IMG/VR virus record: IMGVR_UViG_2778261177_000005
DNA from: a virus
Taxonomy: Duplodnaviria > Heunggongvirae > Uroviricota > Caudoviricetes
DNA length: 43,152 bases
Direction: 5' to 3' (one strand)
The position numbers and the translations under genes are program-made. Below the pieces are notes generated by a model, which ran no database searches, was not told the DNA's origin, and saw only the letters and a list, made by a program, of their open reading frames with translations. Shown here piece by piece: positions 3,041-24,620 of the stretch. Numbering within the stretch: position 1 is the stretch's first letter; the number at the start of each line of letters is the position of its first letter.

Positions 3041-3720
3041 CAGAGTAATACTCCCCATGCCCCTACATCAAAACCACTGATGAATTCGTTATCCATATCA
3101 AAACCAAAAAATTTTGAACCTTCCGATGGGGTTTCCACCGAAGGTGTTTCAATGCCACCCGCCCACACACCGGCGGCTTTTACTGTGAGATATCCCTGTT
3201 TAATTGCAGCAATTAACTCACGCGATACATCTGAAATATCAGTATCAGGAAAGACCCAGACCGATATCGTCATGTCCTGGTTATCGACTATCTGCATTCG
3301 CAGTCCGGATCCTGCTGTTGCAGCGTCAAGAATTGCCGGAAGCGAATCATTCCGTCCGTCCCAGTTATTAATCGCAATCTTCGCTTTAAGAATGACACGA
3401 TAAGTTTCATCGCTGAGATACATGTATCCTGAATCAGGATCATATGGCCCCTGCCATACCCCCTGATCATACCCAAGCCCGTCGGTATCCCAGCTGAAAT
3501 AGACACCTGAGATAAGCTGGCTGACAACACGGCTACGTCCGATCCACAATCCCAGAATGTCAAGTTGCACACCAACCGCAGAGTCAATATCAAATGCAGT
3601 AATCAGCCCTCTGGTGGCAGCCGCAACATCAATAAGCGGCCGGGTCATCAGATCAACATGTGCAAGAAATTTAGGTTTGGTGGCGTGGTAGTTTGTGATT
3701 AGTTCGGTGTATTTGCTCAT
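3040..3720 (-). CDS. baseplate/tail protein, P2 gpI-like (YmfQ/DUF2313-like)
   Basis: 226 aa; ATGA overlap with upstream gene; sits between the gpJ-like and tail fibre genes as in P2-type baseplate modules. Confidence 0.55.
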   Translation of the reverse strand: MSKYTELITNYHATKPKFLAHVDLMTRPLIDVAAATRGLITAFDIDSAVGVQLDILGLWIGRSRVVSQLISGVYFSWDTDGLGYDQGVWQGPYDPDSGYMYLSDETYRVILKAKIAINNWDGRNDSLPAILDAATAGSGLRMQIVDNQDMTISVWVFPDTDISDVSRELIAAIKQGYLTVKAAGVWAGGIETPSVETPSEGSKFFGFDMDNEFISGFDVGAWGVLL

Positions 3721-4916
3721 GACTCCACCGTTATAACGATATTTTCCGGGGTACAGGACGCAGATTCGTTGTATCTGATATCAATGTTTGATGACGACAA
3801 AGCCCCCGGGGATTTACCAATCGTCAGTTCCTGAATATCGTAATAGCGTGCATTCCCGCCACTCACCACGCCAAGATTCGCCGGTGAGTAAATGCGACTT
3901 AAAAGGACCGAATCACCAATCATCAGACTATTGATATAGTCGGAAATAGCCTGCTGGATCTGCTGCCCTATCTGTGAGGTATAACCCGTAAAAACTTTTA
4001 ATTTAATCCGGGCATAAACAGGCACATCACTGGAACGCGAGAATTTGATTACATGGGGATTGCCGTATTTATCCGGAACCGTAACGGATGTTGTACCGTG
4101 AGTGGCTGTCCCCTGGCCTTTATTCCCTCTGATAGCCTGAGCAATATCCGTCACATCACCACCATCCACAATTACAGCAACAGAGTGTGGCGGTAACCCG
4201 TTACCGTCCTCCGAACCAGTATCGTTTTCATAGAGTTTGTGGCGGGTTACACCGGCAACATTAGAAACAGCACCATCCAGTGCTTCAAATGGGGTTATTG
4301 ATGGCAACGCAACACTTTGCGACTGGCGGATACGTAACTCAGCATCAGTTTCTGCTGGAGTACCCACAGTAGCCGCAGCAGGATTGGTTACCGAAACCCA
4401 GCCACGGGTTGGCGTATTAATTTCAGTGATAGTTCCAGCCAGCGCCGCCACTGCACCACTGACGGAACATGTTGCGGTCACCATCACTGTACCATCCACG
4501 CCGACCACCACTGAAGCAGGCAAACGCCATATCACATTATTACTGTCTTTCACGCTGCCATTAATGATGGTTGTTCCGGCAGTTCCTGTAAGAAGCAAAT
4601 CAACCGTAGAGTTCGTCGCGCCTTTACGTGAAATACCATTTATTTTCACGTTACTGGTCAGTGCAGCCCCATAGCCGGTTGCCGGTGAAAAACAGTTGTA
4701 GACAGTTATCGCCGTATTATTGGCATCATGAATCGCCAGCGCCATCAGAGCCACCATCTGGCCGTCTTTACTGTCTGGTTCGAGGTAAGCATCACTGCCA
4801 TAAATCTGCTGAAAATAGCTAATCAGGGTGCTGAGTATCGTCTGATAATCAGGCGCACTGATCCCCTCCGCGGTTACCTTTGCAGATAAACCGAGAGAAT
4901 CAAGGTTCAGAGCCAT
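3717..4916 (-). CDS. baseplate J-like protein (P2 gpJ / Mu gp47-like)
   Basis: 399 aa; translationally coupled to flanking genes; family assigned from position and size. Confidence 0.6.
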   Translation of the reverse strand: MALNLDSLGLSAKVTAEGISAPDYQTILSTLISYFQQIYGSDAYLEPDSKDGQMVALMALAIHDANNTAITVYNCFSPATGYGAALTSNVKINGISRKGATNSTVDLLLTGTAGTTIINGSVKDSNNVIWRLPASVVVGVDGTVMVTATCSVSGAVAALAGTITEINTPTRGWVSVTNPAAATVGTPAETDAELRIRQSQSVALPSITPFEALDGAVSNVAGVTRHKLYENDTGSEDGNGLPPHSVAVIVDGGDVTDIAQAIRGNKGQGTATHGTTSVTVPDKYGNPHVIKFSRSSDVPVYARIKLKVFTGYTSQIGQQIQQAISDYINSLMIGDSVLLSRIYSPANLGVVSGGNARYYDIQELTIGKSPGALSSSNIDIRYNESASCTPENIVITVES

Positions 4917-5269
4917 TACGCCTCCGATGTAACAGTCGTTATTCCATAGAGAGTGTCGATTTCAGCGGAAAACATGACACGTCGGGTCGTGGTATCCACC
5001 GTCGTATTGAAAGAGAGGATTGATTTAACGCCCCGCGTTTCGAGGATGCGCTTACGGATCGCCAGGTTGTAGGTTTCCGGCTTCTGCTTACCGAGTACGG
5101 ACTGGATCCACGGAGTCCCCTCGGTGGTGTCGAGAAACCATTGTCCATACCACAATTCGAATCGCGTTTTTACCGCCTGCGCCACGGCCTCCGGTGAGTT
5201 AATCAGCCAGGTGTCATCACCGCTGCCAAAGGTGTAATCGCCATCGGCGTCTTCACGTCTGTATCGCAT
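4916..5269 (-). CDS. baseplate wedge protein, gpW/gp25-like
   Basis: 117 aa; overlapping start/stop with neighbours; between the gpV-like and gpJ-like genes. Confidence 0.55.
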   Translation of the reverse strand: MRYRREDADGDYTFGSGDDTWLINSPEAVAQAVKTRFELWYGQWFLDTTEGTPWIQSVLGKQKPETYNLAIRKRILETRGVKSILSFNTTVDTTTRRVMFSAEIDTLYGITTVTSEA

Positions 5270-6021
5270 CAGTTTACTCCGTCGGTATTGCCTCCACCGC
5301 GCTGAACACCACCATGAGTGTGCGTATCATCGATTGGCTTGCCGTTAGCCTTCACGCTACCCAAAAACTCAACAGCACCAGTGATTTTTGAAGCCACACC
5401 AGAAGCAACAGACCCCACCATGCCACCCATCCAGGTTAACAGGCCATGAATGGTTACTTTCTCAGAAAAATCAGCCAGAGGGGCAACCACATCAAGACCA
5501 CCCGGAGCGACAATTTTAATTTTCCGGGTATCAGGATTAAGCTCAAAATAGGTGCTGCCGTCGTCACTACGCAACTGTGTGGCACTGGTATTAATACCGC
5601 TAATCTTCCTAGCCTGCGACTGGGGACCGACAATACAAAACGCATCCGATAAATCATGCATTCTGTCATCGACCGGCTCCTGTATCCCGCCACTCTGCCA
5701 CCAGAAATCAATACAACGATCGGCAAAAATCACCAAACATTCATCACCGGCTTTAACTGGAAACGTTAGCGTACAGCCTCCGCCACGCGGGAATACCACT
5801 GGCACATCCACCAGCAATGGGTAATTTTTGGTAATGCGGTTGCCGTCGTTATCAATTTCAACGTAACGGATAGCAGGCTGTACAACCGCCGTCACCGCAT
5901 CAGGAGCGAATGACTGAACAATGCCAGGCAAGGCGACACGGATCTGGTTCTTTGTTGTTTCCCGTTCAGATTTAAATGTTTCGGCAAGGTCACCGCTGCG
6001 GGTCTGGTCAGATACTGCCAT
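5269..6021 (-). CDS. baseplate assembly/spike protein, gpV-like
   Basis: 250 aa; RBS GGAG 9 nt upstream of the ATG at 6021; first gene after the inserted island. Confidence 0.6.
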   Translation of the reverse strand: MAVSDQTRSGDLAETFKSERETTKNQIRVALPGIVQSFAPDAVTAVVQPAIRYVEIDNDGNRITKNYPLLVDVPVVFPRGGGCTLTFPVKAGDECLVIFADRCIDFWWQSGGIQEPVDDRMHDLSDAFCIVGPQSQARKISGINTSATQLRSDDGSTYFELNPDTRKIKIVAPGGLDVVAPLADFSEKVTIHGLLTWMGGMVGSVASGVASKITGAVEFLGSVKANGKPIDDTHTHGGVQRGGGNTDGVN

Positions 6022-6038: not shown

Positions 6039-6062
6039 GCAAAAAACCCGCCAAGTGGCGGG
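6039..6062 (-). terminator. intrinsic terminator immediately 3' of the accessory gene pair
   Basis: Minus strand reads CCCGCC-ACTT-GGCGGG followed by UUUUUU; lies between the stop of 6086..6514 and the gpV-like RBS. Confidence 0.7.
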
Positions 6063-6085
6063 TTTGAATTTTGAGAAATTTCAGC

Positions 6086-6514
6086 TTATGCAGTTAACGA
6101 GTCATCACCAATCTTCAGTAATTGATTAACGATTGCATCGACCTCTTCCGCATCCAGAATTACACTTCTCGCGGTAATCCGGTTGATTTTCCGCTCAAGC
6201 TTGTAATCAGAATTAACACGTTGGGCATGCGTCATTTTCAGTTTAACGCCGATTTTCTTTACTGCGTTAACATCAACATCGTTAAGTGCAGCTGCCTCAC
6301 CACTACAAAAGGCCGTATAGACTCGCATGTGAACTCCACCTTTTAGTTTTTCACCATCTTGTGTAGCGGTCGGTACCAGATTGTTGGTGATCCGTAAGGC
6401 GGAATGGTACATACCATAGTATGCTCGGCTAATAGCATTTCTCGTCCACATCTCACCGTTTAGAGCCAGGGAATGCTTAGCCAATTCAAGAAAACAGGTA
6501 TGCTCAACCGACAT
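6086..6514 (-). CDS. HEPN-like helical domain protein (candidate RNase toxin / abortive-infection effector)
   Basis: 142 aa; N-terminal ...EMWTRNAISRAYYGMYHSALRI and C-terminal ...HAQRVNSDYKLER resemble the two conserved helices of classical HEPN domains as I recall them; TAATG coupling to the upstream gene; AT-richer than flanking tail genes by eye. Confidence 0.45.
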   Translation of the reverse strand: MSVEHTCFLELAKHSLALNGEMWTRNAISRAYYGMYHSALRITNNLVPTATQDGEKLKGGVHMRVYTAFCSGEAAALNDVDVNAVKKIGVKLKMTHAQRVNSDYKLERKINRITARSVILDAEEVDAIVNQLLKIGDDSLTA

Positions 6515-7245
6515 TAGAGTTCCCCGGCTTCAAAGCATCCGACGCATTCTGAATCCGCAAGCCCCGCAATAATAATCTCATCAGCCAAGGCATTATTCAT
6601 CTGCGAAAGAAGCACTGGATCGTCTGTTTTGACTTCAACGAACAGCGTATCAAGTTCTGACATTACATAAAAAGCATGAGCGCCAGCAAGACGAGCGCGG
6701 TACTTTTCTGCAACGTTCATCATGAGCCGCCCAATAGTTTTTAGCTCCTGAGCATGATCTTTTTGGGTATGCAGATAATTGAGCGTGTCATACCATTTGC
6801 CCATATCTTCAGGGCGCGGTACTTCCATTGCAGTTAGCATCGGCATCACCTTTTCAAGCAAATCGATATCAACCCAGTATGCAGAAATTGTAGCAACCTC
6901 AGCCAATATCGTTGGATTAAGTGAATCAGATGCTTTCTGAATCATCACATACTGGCGAGCATGCAAACCTAAGTTACGCAGCGCAATCGTATAGTTACAA
7001 AAAGAAACTGGATCGTTAGGCGCTATTCTCAACCCCCGCTCACAGAGTGAACATCCTTCATCTATTTCACCAAGAACAAGCTTAGCTAAGCCTTCAATTG
7101 ATAGCCCCTGATAACGTTCAGGTAGTTTCTTCGCTTCACGAATGATTCGATGGATTTCAAACTCACTCAGAAGGTTTTCACCCTTAGTTAATGAAGGAGT
7201 CAGAAGATCTAACAGTTCTCCTGATTTTGGCTGCGCTAAACTCAT
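6514..7245 (-). CDS. hypothetical protein, predicted all-helical (TPR-like?), partner of the HEPN-like protein
   Basis: 243 aa; RBS AGGA about 10 nt upstream of ATG; preceded by a 149-bp gap; no motif I recognise (no nucleotidyltransferase GS...DxD motif). Confidence 0.6.
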   Translation of the reverse strand: MSLAQPKSGELLDLLTPSLTKGENLLSEFEIHRIIREAKKLPERYQGLSIEGLAKLVLGEIDEGCSLCERGLRIAPNDPVSFCNYTIALRNLGLHARQYVMIQKASDSLNPTILAEVATISAYWVDIDLLEKVMPMLTAMEVPRPEDMGKWYDTLNYLHTQKDHAQELKTIGRLMMNVAEKYRARLAGAHAFYVMSELDTLFVEVKTDDPVLLSQMNNALADEIIIAGLADSECVGCFEAGEL

Positions 7246-7394
7246 GTTTTAGTTATTCCTGGCTTTAATGAAGTAGCATATCGATGGCAATCCACCATCA
7301 AAAAGTCAGTGCAGTGTAATCGCTCGTCTCAAAAAACAACAGTTTTTAGAGCACATTTTGTTGTTTTTCAGGCGTTACGAATTTCAGGTTACCT

Positions 7395-7736
7395 TCACCC
7401 AGCCACTTTTTTACAAGGGAAAGATCCGATGATTTTCGGCGCATCCATGCTGTTCTGCAGAAGCTGGACATTCAGGAATCGCGTTTCGGTACCAGGGCGA
7501 CGAATGTATTCAAAGCCGTAGTTGTTACCGTCTTTGGCAGGCATAAGCCCCATGTCTACTTTCAAACCATTGGTACCCAGTTCGGTGATTTTTTGAGAGG
7601 TAACTCTTTCACCGTTGATAGTCGATAACTCGCCCTGGTTTGCAACCATAGTGTAGCCACCGCATTTAACCGTGAAGCCATCCGCCCACGCGCTGCACGC
7701 AGAAAAGACAGCTAACAGAAAAATAATACCCCTCAT
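7395..7736 (-). CDS. small secreted/periplasmic protein (signal peptide, 2 Cys in mature part)
   Basis: 113 aa; N-terminus MRGIIFLLAVFSACSAWA-DG is a typical Sec signal peptide with AxA site; RBS AAGGGGA; start 3 nt after the gpD-like stop. Confidence 0.6.
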   Translation of the reverse strand: MRGIIFLLAVFSACSAWADGFTVKCGGYTMVANQGELSTINGERVTSQKITELGTNGLKVDMGLMPAKDGNNYGFEYIRRPGTETRFLNVQLLQNSMDAPKIIGSFPCKKVAG

Positions 7737-22977: not shown

Positions 22978-23163
22978 TCAGTCCCGAACAAACGTAACCT
23001 TCGTGTTTGTCGCTCGCCTTACAAGGCGCGCCGCTTCGCGTTGCATTTCATCGATAACTTTTTGCGTCATCGGCTGATGCGCATATTTACGTTCAATCTC
23101 TGCAAAAATCCCGTTCATCGTTTCGCTGTCTGGTGGGATAACTTCAACGTTTAATCGTGCCAT
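22978..23163 (-). CDS. small hypothetical protein
   Basis: ORF 22978..23190 (TTG start); ATG at 23163 gives 61 aa; weak RBS; between the spanins and terS. Confidence 0.3.
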   Translation of the reverse strand: MARLNVEVIPPDSETMNGIFAEIERKYAHQPMTQKVIDEMQREAARLVRRATNTKVTFVRD

Positions 23164-23422
23164 TGGTTTGTGCTGCCCTGTTTTTCTCAAAAGTCCTGAT
23201 ATCGGCCTTATCCCTGTTGCACTGTGCTAACGCTGACAACAACGCAACATTCAGGTTAAGGCTGGCTCCCCACGTAAACGGGTCGGGTAAATCTGGCTGG
23301 GGTGTTTCATCCGTCAGACTGGCTGGTAACGGAACGACCGGCACCGACACGTATACCGTTCGCGTATTCGTGCAACCGCTTAACTGCGCCAGAAGGAACG
23401 ATACGAACAGCACAATCATCAT
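23144..23422 (-). CDS. o-spanin (Rz1-like outer-membrane lipoprotein)
   Basis: Lipoprotein signal MMIVLFVSFLLAQLSG-C then Pro-rich VPVVPLPASLTDETPQPDLPDP; overlaps the 3' part of the Rz-like gene in another frame. Confidence 0.6.
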   Translation of the reverse strand: MMIVLFVSFLLAQLSGCTNTRTVYVSVPVVPLPASLTDETPQPDLPDPFTWGASLNLNVALLSALAQCNRDKADIRTFEKNRAAQTNGTIKR

Positions 23423-23699
23423 CCGCAACAGCCACTTTGATATCTTCCTGGGTTCTCTGTGACTCCAGTGCGATCTGCTGTTTTGCATGCTGGTTAGCCT
23501 CTATAACTGTATTGATGATTTGCAGTGATTGCAGGACGTTACTGGTAATGGCTGTTGCAGATTCAGCATTTCGTACAGCCTCATCAGCACGCTCCTTTTC
23601 GTGTTGATATTTGCTGTAGTAATGCCCGGCAGACCAGATAAAAGAACCGATGACGGTAACAAAGAAGGCAACAATAACCAGCTTATATCTCAGCTTCAT
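23307..23699 (-). CDS. i-spanin (Rz-like)
   Basis: 130 aa; N-terminal TM helix (LVIVAFFVTVIGSFIW) then coiled-coil-like region; downstream of the endolysin with embedded Rz1-like frame. Confidence 0.65.
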   Translation of the reverse strand: MKLRYKLVIVAFFVTVIGSFIWSAGHYYSKYQHEKERADEAVRNAESATAITSNVLQSLQIINTVIEANQHAKQQIALESQRTQEDIKVAVADDDCAVRIVPSGAVKRLHEYANGIRVGAGRSVTSQSDG

Positions 23700-24159
23700 T
23701 TACCACCCCACCAGCTTCTTTAAATCGGGAAATCAGGTCACCGATTCTATGTTCATACTGACCGTAACCTGCACCAGGTAACGACGCCCAGATATTGCTG
23801 CAACGGTCGATTGCCTGACGAATATCGCCGCGGTCAATCATCGGTAAAGCGCCACGCTCTTTAATCTGCTGCAGCGCTACAGCATCCTGGCTTTCTGGAG
23901 AAAAATCTTTCAGACCAAGTTGCTTGCGGTAGGCATCCCACCAGCGTGAAAGAAGCTGGTAACGTCCGGCGGCTGTTGATTTGAGTTTCGGATTTAGCGT
24001 GACAAGTTTGCGGGGGTGATCGGAGTAATCAGTGAACAGTTCGCCACCGACAATAACATCATAACCGTGATTTCTGGTTTTCTGCCGCCCGTTATCTGTT
24101 CCTTCTGACCATGCCACCATATCAAGGAAAGCTTTACGCTGAGAATTAAGTGTCTGCAT
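23683..24159 (-). CDS. R: endolysin, lambda R-type lytic transglycosylase
   Basis: 158 aa, MQTLNSQRKAFLDMVAWSEGTDNGRQKTRNHGYDVIVGG...; near-identical in my recollection to phage lambda R. Confidence 0.85.
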   Translation of the reverse strand: MQTLNSQRKAFLDMVAWSEGTDNGRQKTRNHGYDVIVGGELFTDYSDHPRKLVTLNPKLKSTAAGRYQLLSRWWDAYRKQLGLKDFSPESQDAVALQQIKERGALPMIDRGDIRQAIDRCSNIWASLPGAGYGQYEHRIGDLISRFKEAGGVVNEAEI

Positions 24160-24162
24160 TAA

Positions 24163-24498
24163 TTACTCCTTATGGGCACCGAACTTGTTACCGATGACCC
24201 TCATTGCCGCACCACGAATAGCATCAACACCAATCAGCCCCACCCCACCACCAATGGCAACAGAAAGTGATTTAGGCCATCCGACATACTCAAGCGCGGA
24301 TGCAAAGGTCAGCGTCAGGGCACCACAGAGCAAAATCTCAAGCGTTTTTCGTTTCCAGCCCCCACCACCGCCAAAATAGGCGATGCGCAAACCAGCCATA
24401 ACGATCGACATAATCACTGCACCCAGCGGTGTGTCTCCACGCCACCAGCTCTGAAACAACTCCAGCCAGTCCGGCCAGGTATTTGGGTTATGAGGCAT
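24163..24498 (-). CDS. holin
   Basis: ORF 24163..24522; ATG at 24498 (MPHNPNTW...); two or three hydrophobic segments and a charged C-terminus; immediately upstream of the endolysin. Confidence 0.55.
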   Translation of the reverse strand: MPHNPNTWPDWLELFQSWWRGDTPLGAVIMSIVMAGLRIAYFGGGGGWKRKTLEILLCGALTLTFASALEYVGWPKSLSVAIGGGVGLIGVDAIRGAAMRVIGNKFGAHKE

Positions 24499-24620
24499 TT
24501 CATCATCTCTCACCTCGCACATATCGCGGGTGCAAATTGAGGGAATAAAAAATCCCCGAATATTCCAGGAGCGGAAACGGGGAAAGGCGTTGCACTAAAT
24601 GGGCCTGTCTGCGGCCTTAA

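Follow-up and report, generated by a model that had tools for sequence, protein, structure and literature searches.

The IMG/VR virus record IMGVR_UViG_2778261177_000005, a stretch of 43,152 nucleotides (nt) that is referred to here as the window, is a complete Escherichia coli prophage of the SEN34/Brunovirus type, combining lambdoid early genes with a contractile tail. A small gene on its minus strand (7395–7736, stop codon included) follows the baseplate hub gene and encodes a 113-amino-acid (aa) protein with a predicted Sec signal peptide and a mature domain predicted to form a beta-barrel; we refer to it as the barrel gene. We found that the barrel gene is the standard occupant of a dedicated slot for exported proteins, between the hub and the spike genes, in the tail modules of SEN34/Brunovirus-like temperate myophages of Enterobacterales. 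The family to which the gene belongs was catalogued before, and what is new is the pattern at the level of the slot. As for function, the explanation that we prefer, with a probability of roughly 0.4, is that the protein would act in the periplasm to block a step of infection after adsorption, whatever receptor is used.

A dedicated slot for exported proteins after the baseplate hub gene

The slot was examined in a species-level sample of 59 loci, one genome per species, of which 3 were unusable, 5 had no slot gene and 51 were usable. In these 51 loci, the first slot gene started between −8 and +19 nt from the hub stop codon. A signal peptide was predicted for all 51 first genes after the hub, versus 8% of 1353 other open reading frames (ORFs), the calls being made with a home-made predictor. 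Barrel homologues made up 46 of the 51 first genes (expect value, E, of 5e-14 or better), the other five being lipoproteins or other Sec proteins, and homologues in Klebsiella phages, just 27–28% identical, occupy the same position after the hub. Among 131 slots, the first gene was a barrel gene in 113, a member of a lipoprotein family (F6) in 7 and a member of a Sec family (F8) in 6; L046 6068–6793 and L043 5446–5907, respectively, are examples of F6 and F8 replacing the barrel. The other five slots are not established exceptions: in at least three of them (L072, L101, and L120) the first gene proved elsewhere in the analysis to be exported, so the automatic picker had taken the wrong ORF.

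The occupant was next compared among close relatives, represented by 80 viral contigs with a hub identity of at least 96% to the window. An intact barrel gene followed the hub in 71 of these contigs, and a different exported protein was encoded there in 9. Four of the nine carried a 241-aa lipoprotein (MSRLAITTIVFSLFLTSC...), and five carried a 153–158-aa Sec protein (...ISLLVPMSGLSA, then PG...), beside which a 17-codon remnant of the 3′ end of the barrel gene was kept in three cases. At the five loci with the most divergent hubs (L137, L138, L139, L141, and L142), the hub and spike genes were separated by 42–69 nt with no gene between them. This geneless arrangement is probably ancestral, and the slot a later acquisition of one Enterobacterales sub-lineage. 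Since the tail backbone is unchanged where the barrel is missing or another protein takes its place, the barrel appears not to be a part of the tail and to be dispensable for it.

No match in Pfam or PADLOC was obtained for the lipoprotein and Sec families that replace the barrel. A single lipoprotein N-domain occurs in fusion with the barrel in L099 (11075–11941), L100 (11099–11989), and P0146, and the same N-domain is fused to the F6 C-domain in L095 (11068–12207); because this domain is found joined to either partner, the slot occupants look functionally interchangeable. The barrel gene was never seen outside the hub–spike slot in the loci examined, and in the shortest slots, where hub and spike lie 373–418 nt apart, no other gene accompanies it.

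Junction with the hub gene and family membership

The hub gene (7740–8801, minus strand; 353 aa) lies directly upstream of the barrel gene. Its product matched phrog_196 (“baseplate hub”, E 1.2e-88) and, weakly, the Pfam family E217_GP41 (E 6e-5, under the gathering score). The junction reads GGGGA-TGA-GCA-ATG on the minus strand, where a Shine-Dalgarno-like GGGGA (7743–7747) and the hub stop codon TGA (7740–7742), together 7740–7747, precede the ATG of the barrel gene (7734–7736). With the hub stop codon lying between GGGGA and ATG and the two genes only 3 nt apart, the junction is therefore arranged for translational coupling.

The 113-aa ORF is a real gene and not a chance ORF. Its product matched phrog_3443 (“unknown function”) over residues 2–112 of 113 in a PHROG hmmscan (E 8.4e-48). 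The identical RefSeq protein, WP_001214055.1, is a “hypothetical protein”, for which the newest name from the Prokaryotic Genome Annotation Pipeline is “STY1065/STY2022 family phage-derived protein”. In two database searches, 396 and then 591 homologues were retrieved. All of them came from Enterobacterales, and they were unnamed or labelled “hypothetical” or “secreted protein”; only 40 more were gained when 1.8 billion representatives were searched exhaustively with a profile. The exact protein was present in 2982 blocks of a public assembly collection. No match for the barrel protein was found in Pfam at E up to 0.01 or among the models of NCBIfam release 20, and no defence family of PADLOC-DB 2.0 matched it at E up to 0.1. 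Giant T/S/G-rich repeat proteins (P0124, P0143, P0144, P0158, and P0160), with up to 19 matched stretches and E down to 2e-33, were rejected as homologues because they are repetitive surface proteins in which many weak repeat matches are summed.

In phage SEN34 (L002 5992–6225, SEN34_20) and Klebsiella phage ST340-VIM1phi10.1 (L005 5097–5330), the gene is annotated from an internal start as a 77-aa product, which removes the signal peptide; a tblastn search showed that the full-length form is conserved in both. In the prophage at L232, the barrel gene is intact despite frameshifts in four large genes within 8 kb, an apparent decay that resembles sequencing error and was not used as evidence.

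Conserved export signals

The N-terminus of the ORF, MRGIIFLLAVFSACSAWA, is a predicted Sec signal peptide (codons 1–18; 7683–7736, minus strand), with cleavage by signal peptidase I predicted after A-W-A. It divides into MRG, IIFLLAVFSAC, and SAWA, followed by DG; a positive n-region, a hydrophobic h-region, and small residues at −3/−1 are all present. The export call rests on these leader features, for which statistics were taken from 258 distinct full-length homologues. A hydrophobic core was found in all 258 (best 9-residue Kyte-Doolittle mean at least 2.13, median 2.8), K or R within residues 2–7 in 224, and a small −3/−1 site immediately before the first conserved Cys in 241.

A strict lipobox was present in none of the 258 homologues. 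The window allele reads F-S-A-C, with F at −3, versus the lipobox [LVI][ASTVI][GAS]C, and its Cys14 is missing from most homologues. With Cys14 not conserved and no strict lipobox, the rule for the family is therefore processing by signal peptidase I, and a lipoprotein identity for the family was rejected on the same grounds; the window allele specifically might just conceivably be processed by signal peptidase II. It is highly probable that the barrel protein is exported and is not a component of the virion.

Allelic diversity, base composition, and cargo of the slot

No gene of the module varied more than the barrel gene, for which identity ranged over 53–100%, whereas Dit, plug, hub, and W are mostly 88–100% identical; the barrel reaches this range while the hub stays at 96–100%. 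Such allelic diversity suggests an arms-race-like pattern. The recombination junction is the hub stop codon. The spike was also mosaic, being 61–100% identical across L008–L087 where the tail backbone is otherwise mostly 88–100% identical, and barrel, cargo, and spike form one hypervariable island.

A spacer of 149 nt (7246–7394, minus strand), AT-rich with 37.6% GC, separates the barrel gene from a two-gene cargo cassette in the window; its sole hairpin is weak and A/T-rich, and no terminator was found directly after the barrel gene. The cassette consists of a 243-aa gene (6514–7245, minus strand) and a 142-aa, weakly HEPN-like gene (6086–6514, minus strand; HEPN_IX, E 0.009), and is closed by a strong intrinsic terminator (6044–6065, minus strand) just upstream of the spike. 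Versions of this pair, 31–100% identical, were found in ~36 of the 131 hub–spike slots. Elsewhere, the cargo after the first slot gene included a different two-gene pair, a Phd/Doc-like pair, and membrane proteins as well as additional exported proteins. No Pfam match and no convincing PADLOC match was obtained for the 243/142-aa cassette, which is a candidate defence or toxin–antitoxin cassette.

The base composition of the barrel gene (GC 48%; GC at third codon positions, GC3, 0.53) lies within the range of the tail genes, whereas the cassette (GC 44%, GC3 0.38–0.41), which has its own terminator, is compositionally foreign to them. A classical moron identity was rejected for the barrel gene, which has no promoter or terminator of its own, a tail-like composition, and a start coupled to the hub stop codon; judged by composition and terminator, the cassette would fit the definition of a moron better.

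These data bear out the observation behind the original prediction for this gene and part of its interpretation; it had described a 113-aa product with a Sec signal peptide and two cysteines in the mature part, translationally coupled to the baseplate hub gene and exported rather than built into the tail. The leader features conserved across the 258 homologues, the invariance of both cysteines (C25 and C108), and the 3-nt gap at the junction confirm the first three points, and the last is upheld by the conserved export signals, by the unrelated exported replacements on hubs at least 96% identical, and by the five hub lineages with no gene in the slot. The further suggestion that the gene is a hitch-hiker, or belongs to the adjacent accessory island, did not hold, as the gene is the first in 113 of 131 slots, keeps its position at 27–28% identity, and differs from the cassette in GC, GC3, and the lack of a terminator. 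The role that the prediction proposed, a lysogenic-conversion or exclusion factor, is a possible one, but no promoter that could drive it in lysogens was found.

Predicted structure of the mature domain

The mature domain (7398–7682, minus strand; 95 aa, ~10 kDa) is confidently predicted to be an eight-stranded up-and-down beta-barrel. An AlphaFold2 model built from a 25-sequence alignment had a predicted local distance difference test score (pLDDT) of 88.7 and a predicted template modelling score of 0.79, and all five models had a pLDDT of at least 87.8. In this model, C25 and C108, which are invariant across the family, are positioned in the first and last strands. The pairwise ratio of nonsynonymous to synonymous substitution rates was 0.17 for the mature part and 0.79 for the leader, the usual pattern of an exported protein, and the former value indicates purifying selection on the mature part. 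The most conserved segments were INGERVTSQK, DMGLMPAKDGNNYGF, and RFLNVQLLQNSMDAPKIIGSFPC, while the first hairpin and the indel-bearing loops of the barrel were variable.

Comparison of the fold gave figures of 8.5 for the erythrocruorin linker, 7.3–8.4 for avidins, 7.9 for Cap15, 7.0 for both PliC-St and the type VI secretion system immunity protein BtaiB, 6.8 for Brucella PhiA, and 5.6 for MliC/YdhA, with sequence identity to these structures of 14% or less. The predicted fold would thus inform location, as a soluble barrel of periplasmic type, and not function. A family profile search of PDB sequences gave no match at E up to 10, and Foldseek against viral models gave none at E up to 0.001. 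The best Foldseek name, “Lipoprotein [Serratia phage Scapp]”, was followed into the genome record and the paper of Scapp and led nowhere.

Organization of the window and its tail module

The region of the window was matched in 353 of 5426 complete E. coli genomes, and the window also matches Yersinia phage YP3 and Salmonella phage SEN34. Every tail gene of the window is carried on the minus strand. Upstream of the hub lie the genes for the tape measure (9693–11699), a Dit-like tube initiator (9106–9693), and a Pam3-gp18-like plug (8804–9106). The downstream border of the slot is a gpV-like spike gene with an Apex motif (5269–6021), followed by the sheath initiator (4916–5269) and baseplate J (3717–4916). 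A complete lysis cassette, also on the minus strand (23144–24522), lies ~16 kb from the barrel gene and comprises holin (24163–24522), endolysin (23683–24159), Rz (23307–23699), and Rz1 (23144–23488).

Specific functional models

Several specific roles were compared with the distribution of barrel alleles. The main barrel allele (n = 20) was paired with 16 clusters of fibre C-termini. The association index (AMI) between barrel and fibre C-terminus was 0.075, a value reached by 5.4% of 500 shuffles, and it was 0.26 between barrel and tape measure and 0.08 between barrel and spike. Receptor masking of the Llp/Cor type was not supported, given the pairing of the main allele with 16 fibre types and the AMI of 0.075. 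Co-evolution with the spike or the tape measure was likewise rejected, as the alleles reassort; this reassortment against tape measure, spike, and fibre argues against both receptor masking and a cognate lysozyme inhibitor.

The C-terminus of the window tape measure (aa ~490–625; ~9825–10230, minus strand) shows homology both with the solved “Endolysin” 7q47 (E 9.5e-13) and with the Gp29 N-terminus in 9vvp (E 7e-20), and the tail tip would therefore carry a muralytic domain. This domain was found in ~19 of the 59 species-level loci, the others having different C-termini. A cognate inhibitor of the domain was rejected because the domain occurs in so few loci and many barrel loci lack it. A spanin or another lysis function is unlikely, since the full holin/endolysin/Rz/Rz1 set is located elsewhere in the window. 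With three specific models unsupported, what is left is an envelope protein acting on something common to all hosts or to all tails of the lineage.

A possible role in a post-adsorption block, and its rivals

Our preferred explanation, to which the probability of roughly 0.4 given above applies, is a periplasmic and receptor-independent block of a post-adsorption step, serving either to exclude superinfecting phages or to guard sibling cells against the contractile tails of the phage itself. Known analogies are T4 Sp, P1 Sim, and HK97 gp15. In its favour we count the conserved leader and cysteines, the purifying selection on the mature part, the exported first genes of the slots, the relatives without a barrel on near-identical hubs, the arms-race-like diversity, and the lysis cassette elsewhere in the window. 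The barrel would be produced alongside the late tail proteins and, once in the periplasm, would be stabilized by a disulfide bond between C25 and C108. One conserved loop face of the barrel might then bind a conserved partner, either a host-envelope component or a conserved component of the tail tip, and the binding would block tail penetration or DNA delivery after adsorption. The outcome would be exclusion of superinfecting phages, or shielding of sibling cells from the phage's own tails, and the block would not depend on the receptor recognized by the tail fibre.

Several observations weigh against this explanation. Barrel alleles showed no specific covariation with any of the candidate target tail proteins (tape measure, spike, or fibre), and the barrel has no sequence similarity to known exclusion or defence families. 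No sigma-70-like promoter was found upstream of the barrel gene on the minus strand; in a scan for a hidden promoter, the synonymous sites at the 3′ end of the hub gene were only slightly more conserved than average (0.51–0.57 versus a mean of 0.61). The barrel may thus be expressed only late in the lytic cycle, an odd timing for an exclusion protein. Judged by strand order only, the conserved loops should be grouped together at one end of the modelled barrel. A literature search on STY1065, STY2022, WP_001214055, phrog_3443, Brunovirus, and tail-operon exclusion found no functional study.

Among the rivals, a host-fitness or lysogenic-conversion factor unrelated to exclusion is unlikely; it could be a periplasmic ligand-binding barrel, avidin- or lipocalin-like, or a modulator of envelope stress, capsule, or virulence. 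The loops are the most conserved segments of the barrel, the family is found in many Enterobacterales genera whatever the tail-fibre type, and further slot genes often encode membrane or exported proteins, all of which would suit such a role. However, coupling to the hub and the lack of an own promoter suggest late lytic expression, which is atypical of conversion genes, the gene is confined to the hub–spike slot in the loci examined, and no sequence relation to avidins or lipocalins was found. Another rival is a periplasmic helper that acts late in the lytic cycle; it might time lysis, as T4 RI does as a periplasmic antiholin, or alter the envelope ahead of release. The gene does lie inside the late tail operon, coupled to the hub, is the lone hub–spike gene in the shortest slots, and has the base composition of the resident tail genes. 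We nevertheless consider this quite unlikely, given the complete lysis cassette ~16 kb away, the exchange of the barrel for unrelated exported proteins or its absence on the same tail backbone, and an allelic diversity that is high and would be unusual for a housekeeping lysis factor.

The homology of the window tape-measure C-terminus to endolysin 7q47 raises the idea of a periplasmic inhibitor of peptidoglycan hydrolases, acting in the manner of PliC/MliC or Brucella PhiA to neutralize the tape-measure muralytic domain of incoming phages, as T4 Sp does for gp5. We regard it as improbable: barrel alleles do not track the C-terminal alleles of the tape measure, the muralytic domain is found in just ~19 of the 59 species-level loci and is lacking from many with a barrel, neither the Pfam MliC family (PF09864) nor any PDB sequence at E 10 matched, and dozens of unrelated barrels are at least as similar in fold. 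Least credible of all is a structural or assembly protein of the tail, whose hydrophobic N-terminus is not used for export or which decorates the baseplate after lysis. Its coupling to the hub is tight across deep divergence, as might be expected of a tail protein, and virion proteomics for the SEN34-like group was not found in the literature, the SEN34 paper included. Against this stand the unrelated proteins, or the empty slot, in place of the barrel on near-identical hubs and the 53–100% identity of the barrel versus 96–100% for the hub. The conserved small −3/−1 site and the cysteine pair fit periplasmic folding instead, and Pfam covers the neighbours (Dit-like protein, Pam3 gp18 plug, and E217 gp41 hub) while none of its families matches the barrel.

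Beyond the preferred explanation of a periplasmic post-adsorption block by the barrel itself, a wider proposal is that the hub-adjacent slot holds a hitherto unrecognized class of periplasmic “shields” against contractile tails, soluble or lipid-anchored, with the F6 domain and the F8 family as members beside the barrel. Such shields would halt the penetration of contractile tails or the delivery of their DNA, and would form a receptor-independent, generic layer of post-adsorption exclusion in the temperate myophages of Enterobacterales, with their diversity maintained by cassette exchange at the hub stop codon. We consider this proposal doubtful as it stands and put it forward tentatively.

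Comparison with known phage envelope proteins

Envelope-located exclusion proteins include T5 Llp, Cor of phi80/T1/N15, T4 Sp, P1 Sim, and HK97 gp15, several of which have their genes within or beside the tail genes. Of these, the lipoproteins Llp and Cor are matched to a single receptor, FhuA, and travel with the matching receptor-binding protein. Like them, the barrel is a small exported phage protein with a putative disulfide where they may have a disulfide or a lipid anchor, is encoded in a tail or receptor-binding gene neighbourhood, and would act in the envelope of the infected or lysogenic cell; unlike them, it has no lipobox, is unlinked to the fibre type, and shows no detectable sequence similarity. 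T4 Sp and P1 Sim, both soluble proteins that Sec exports to the periplasm, stop infection at a post-adsorption step with no masking of a receptor, and it is their soluble, non-masking mode of action that would fit the barrel best. They differ from it in that they are not known to be encoded inside a late tail operon, whereas the barrel gene is; T4 Sp is helical and targets the gp5 lysozyme, whereas the barrel is predicted to be all-beta and has no link to the tape-measure muralytic domain.

PliC/MliC and Brucella PhiA have no sequence or profile match to the barrel, which does not co-occur with the muralytic domain, and in fold it resembles them no more closely than it does avidins, Cap15, or designed barrels. 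A moron is marked by a promoter and a terminator of its own and by a deviant base composition. With none of these and with one position kept down to 27% identity, the barrel gene differs from HK97 gp15 and lambda lom and bor, which are morons inside late operons; like them, it would encode an accessory envelope protein and lies among late structural genes. By analogy, the barrel would most resemble the known phage envelope accessory proteins in kind.

Significance

This type of prophage is common, yet its most conserved accessory gene has no assigned function. The finding of three unrelated exported families at one coupled position, with swapped domains, points to a selected envelope function that is tied to the tail lineage. 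If the receptor-independent exclusion of contractile tails proposed here is correct, it would be a new mechanism of prophage-mediated phage resistance and would bear on phage therapy against E. coli, Klebsiella, and Salmonella, and the gene after the hub would provide a simple genomic marker for finding more such factors.
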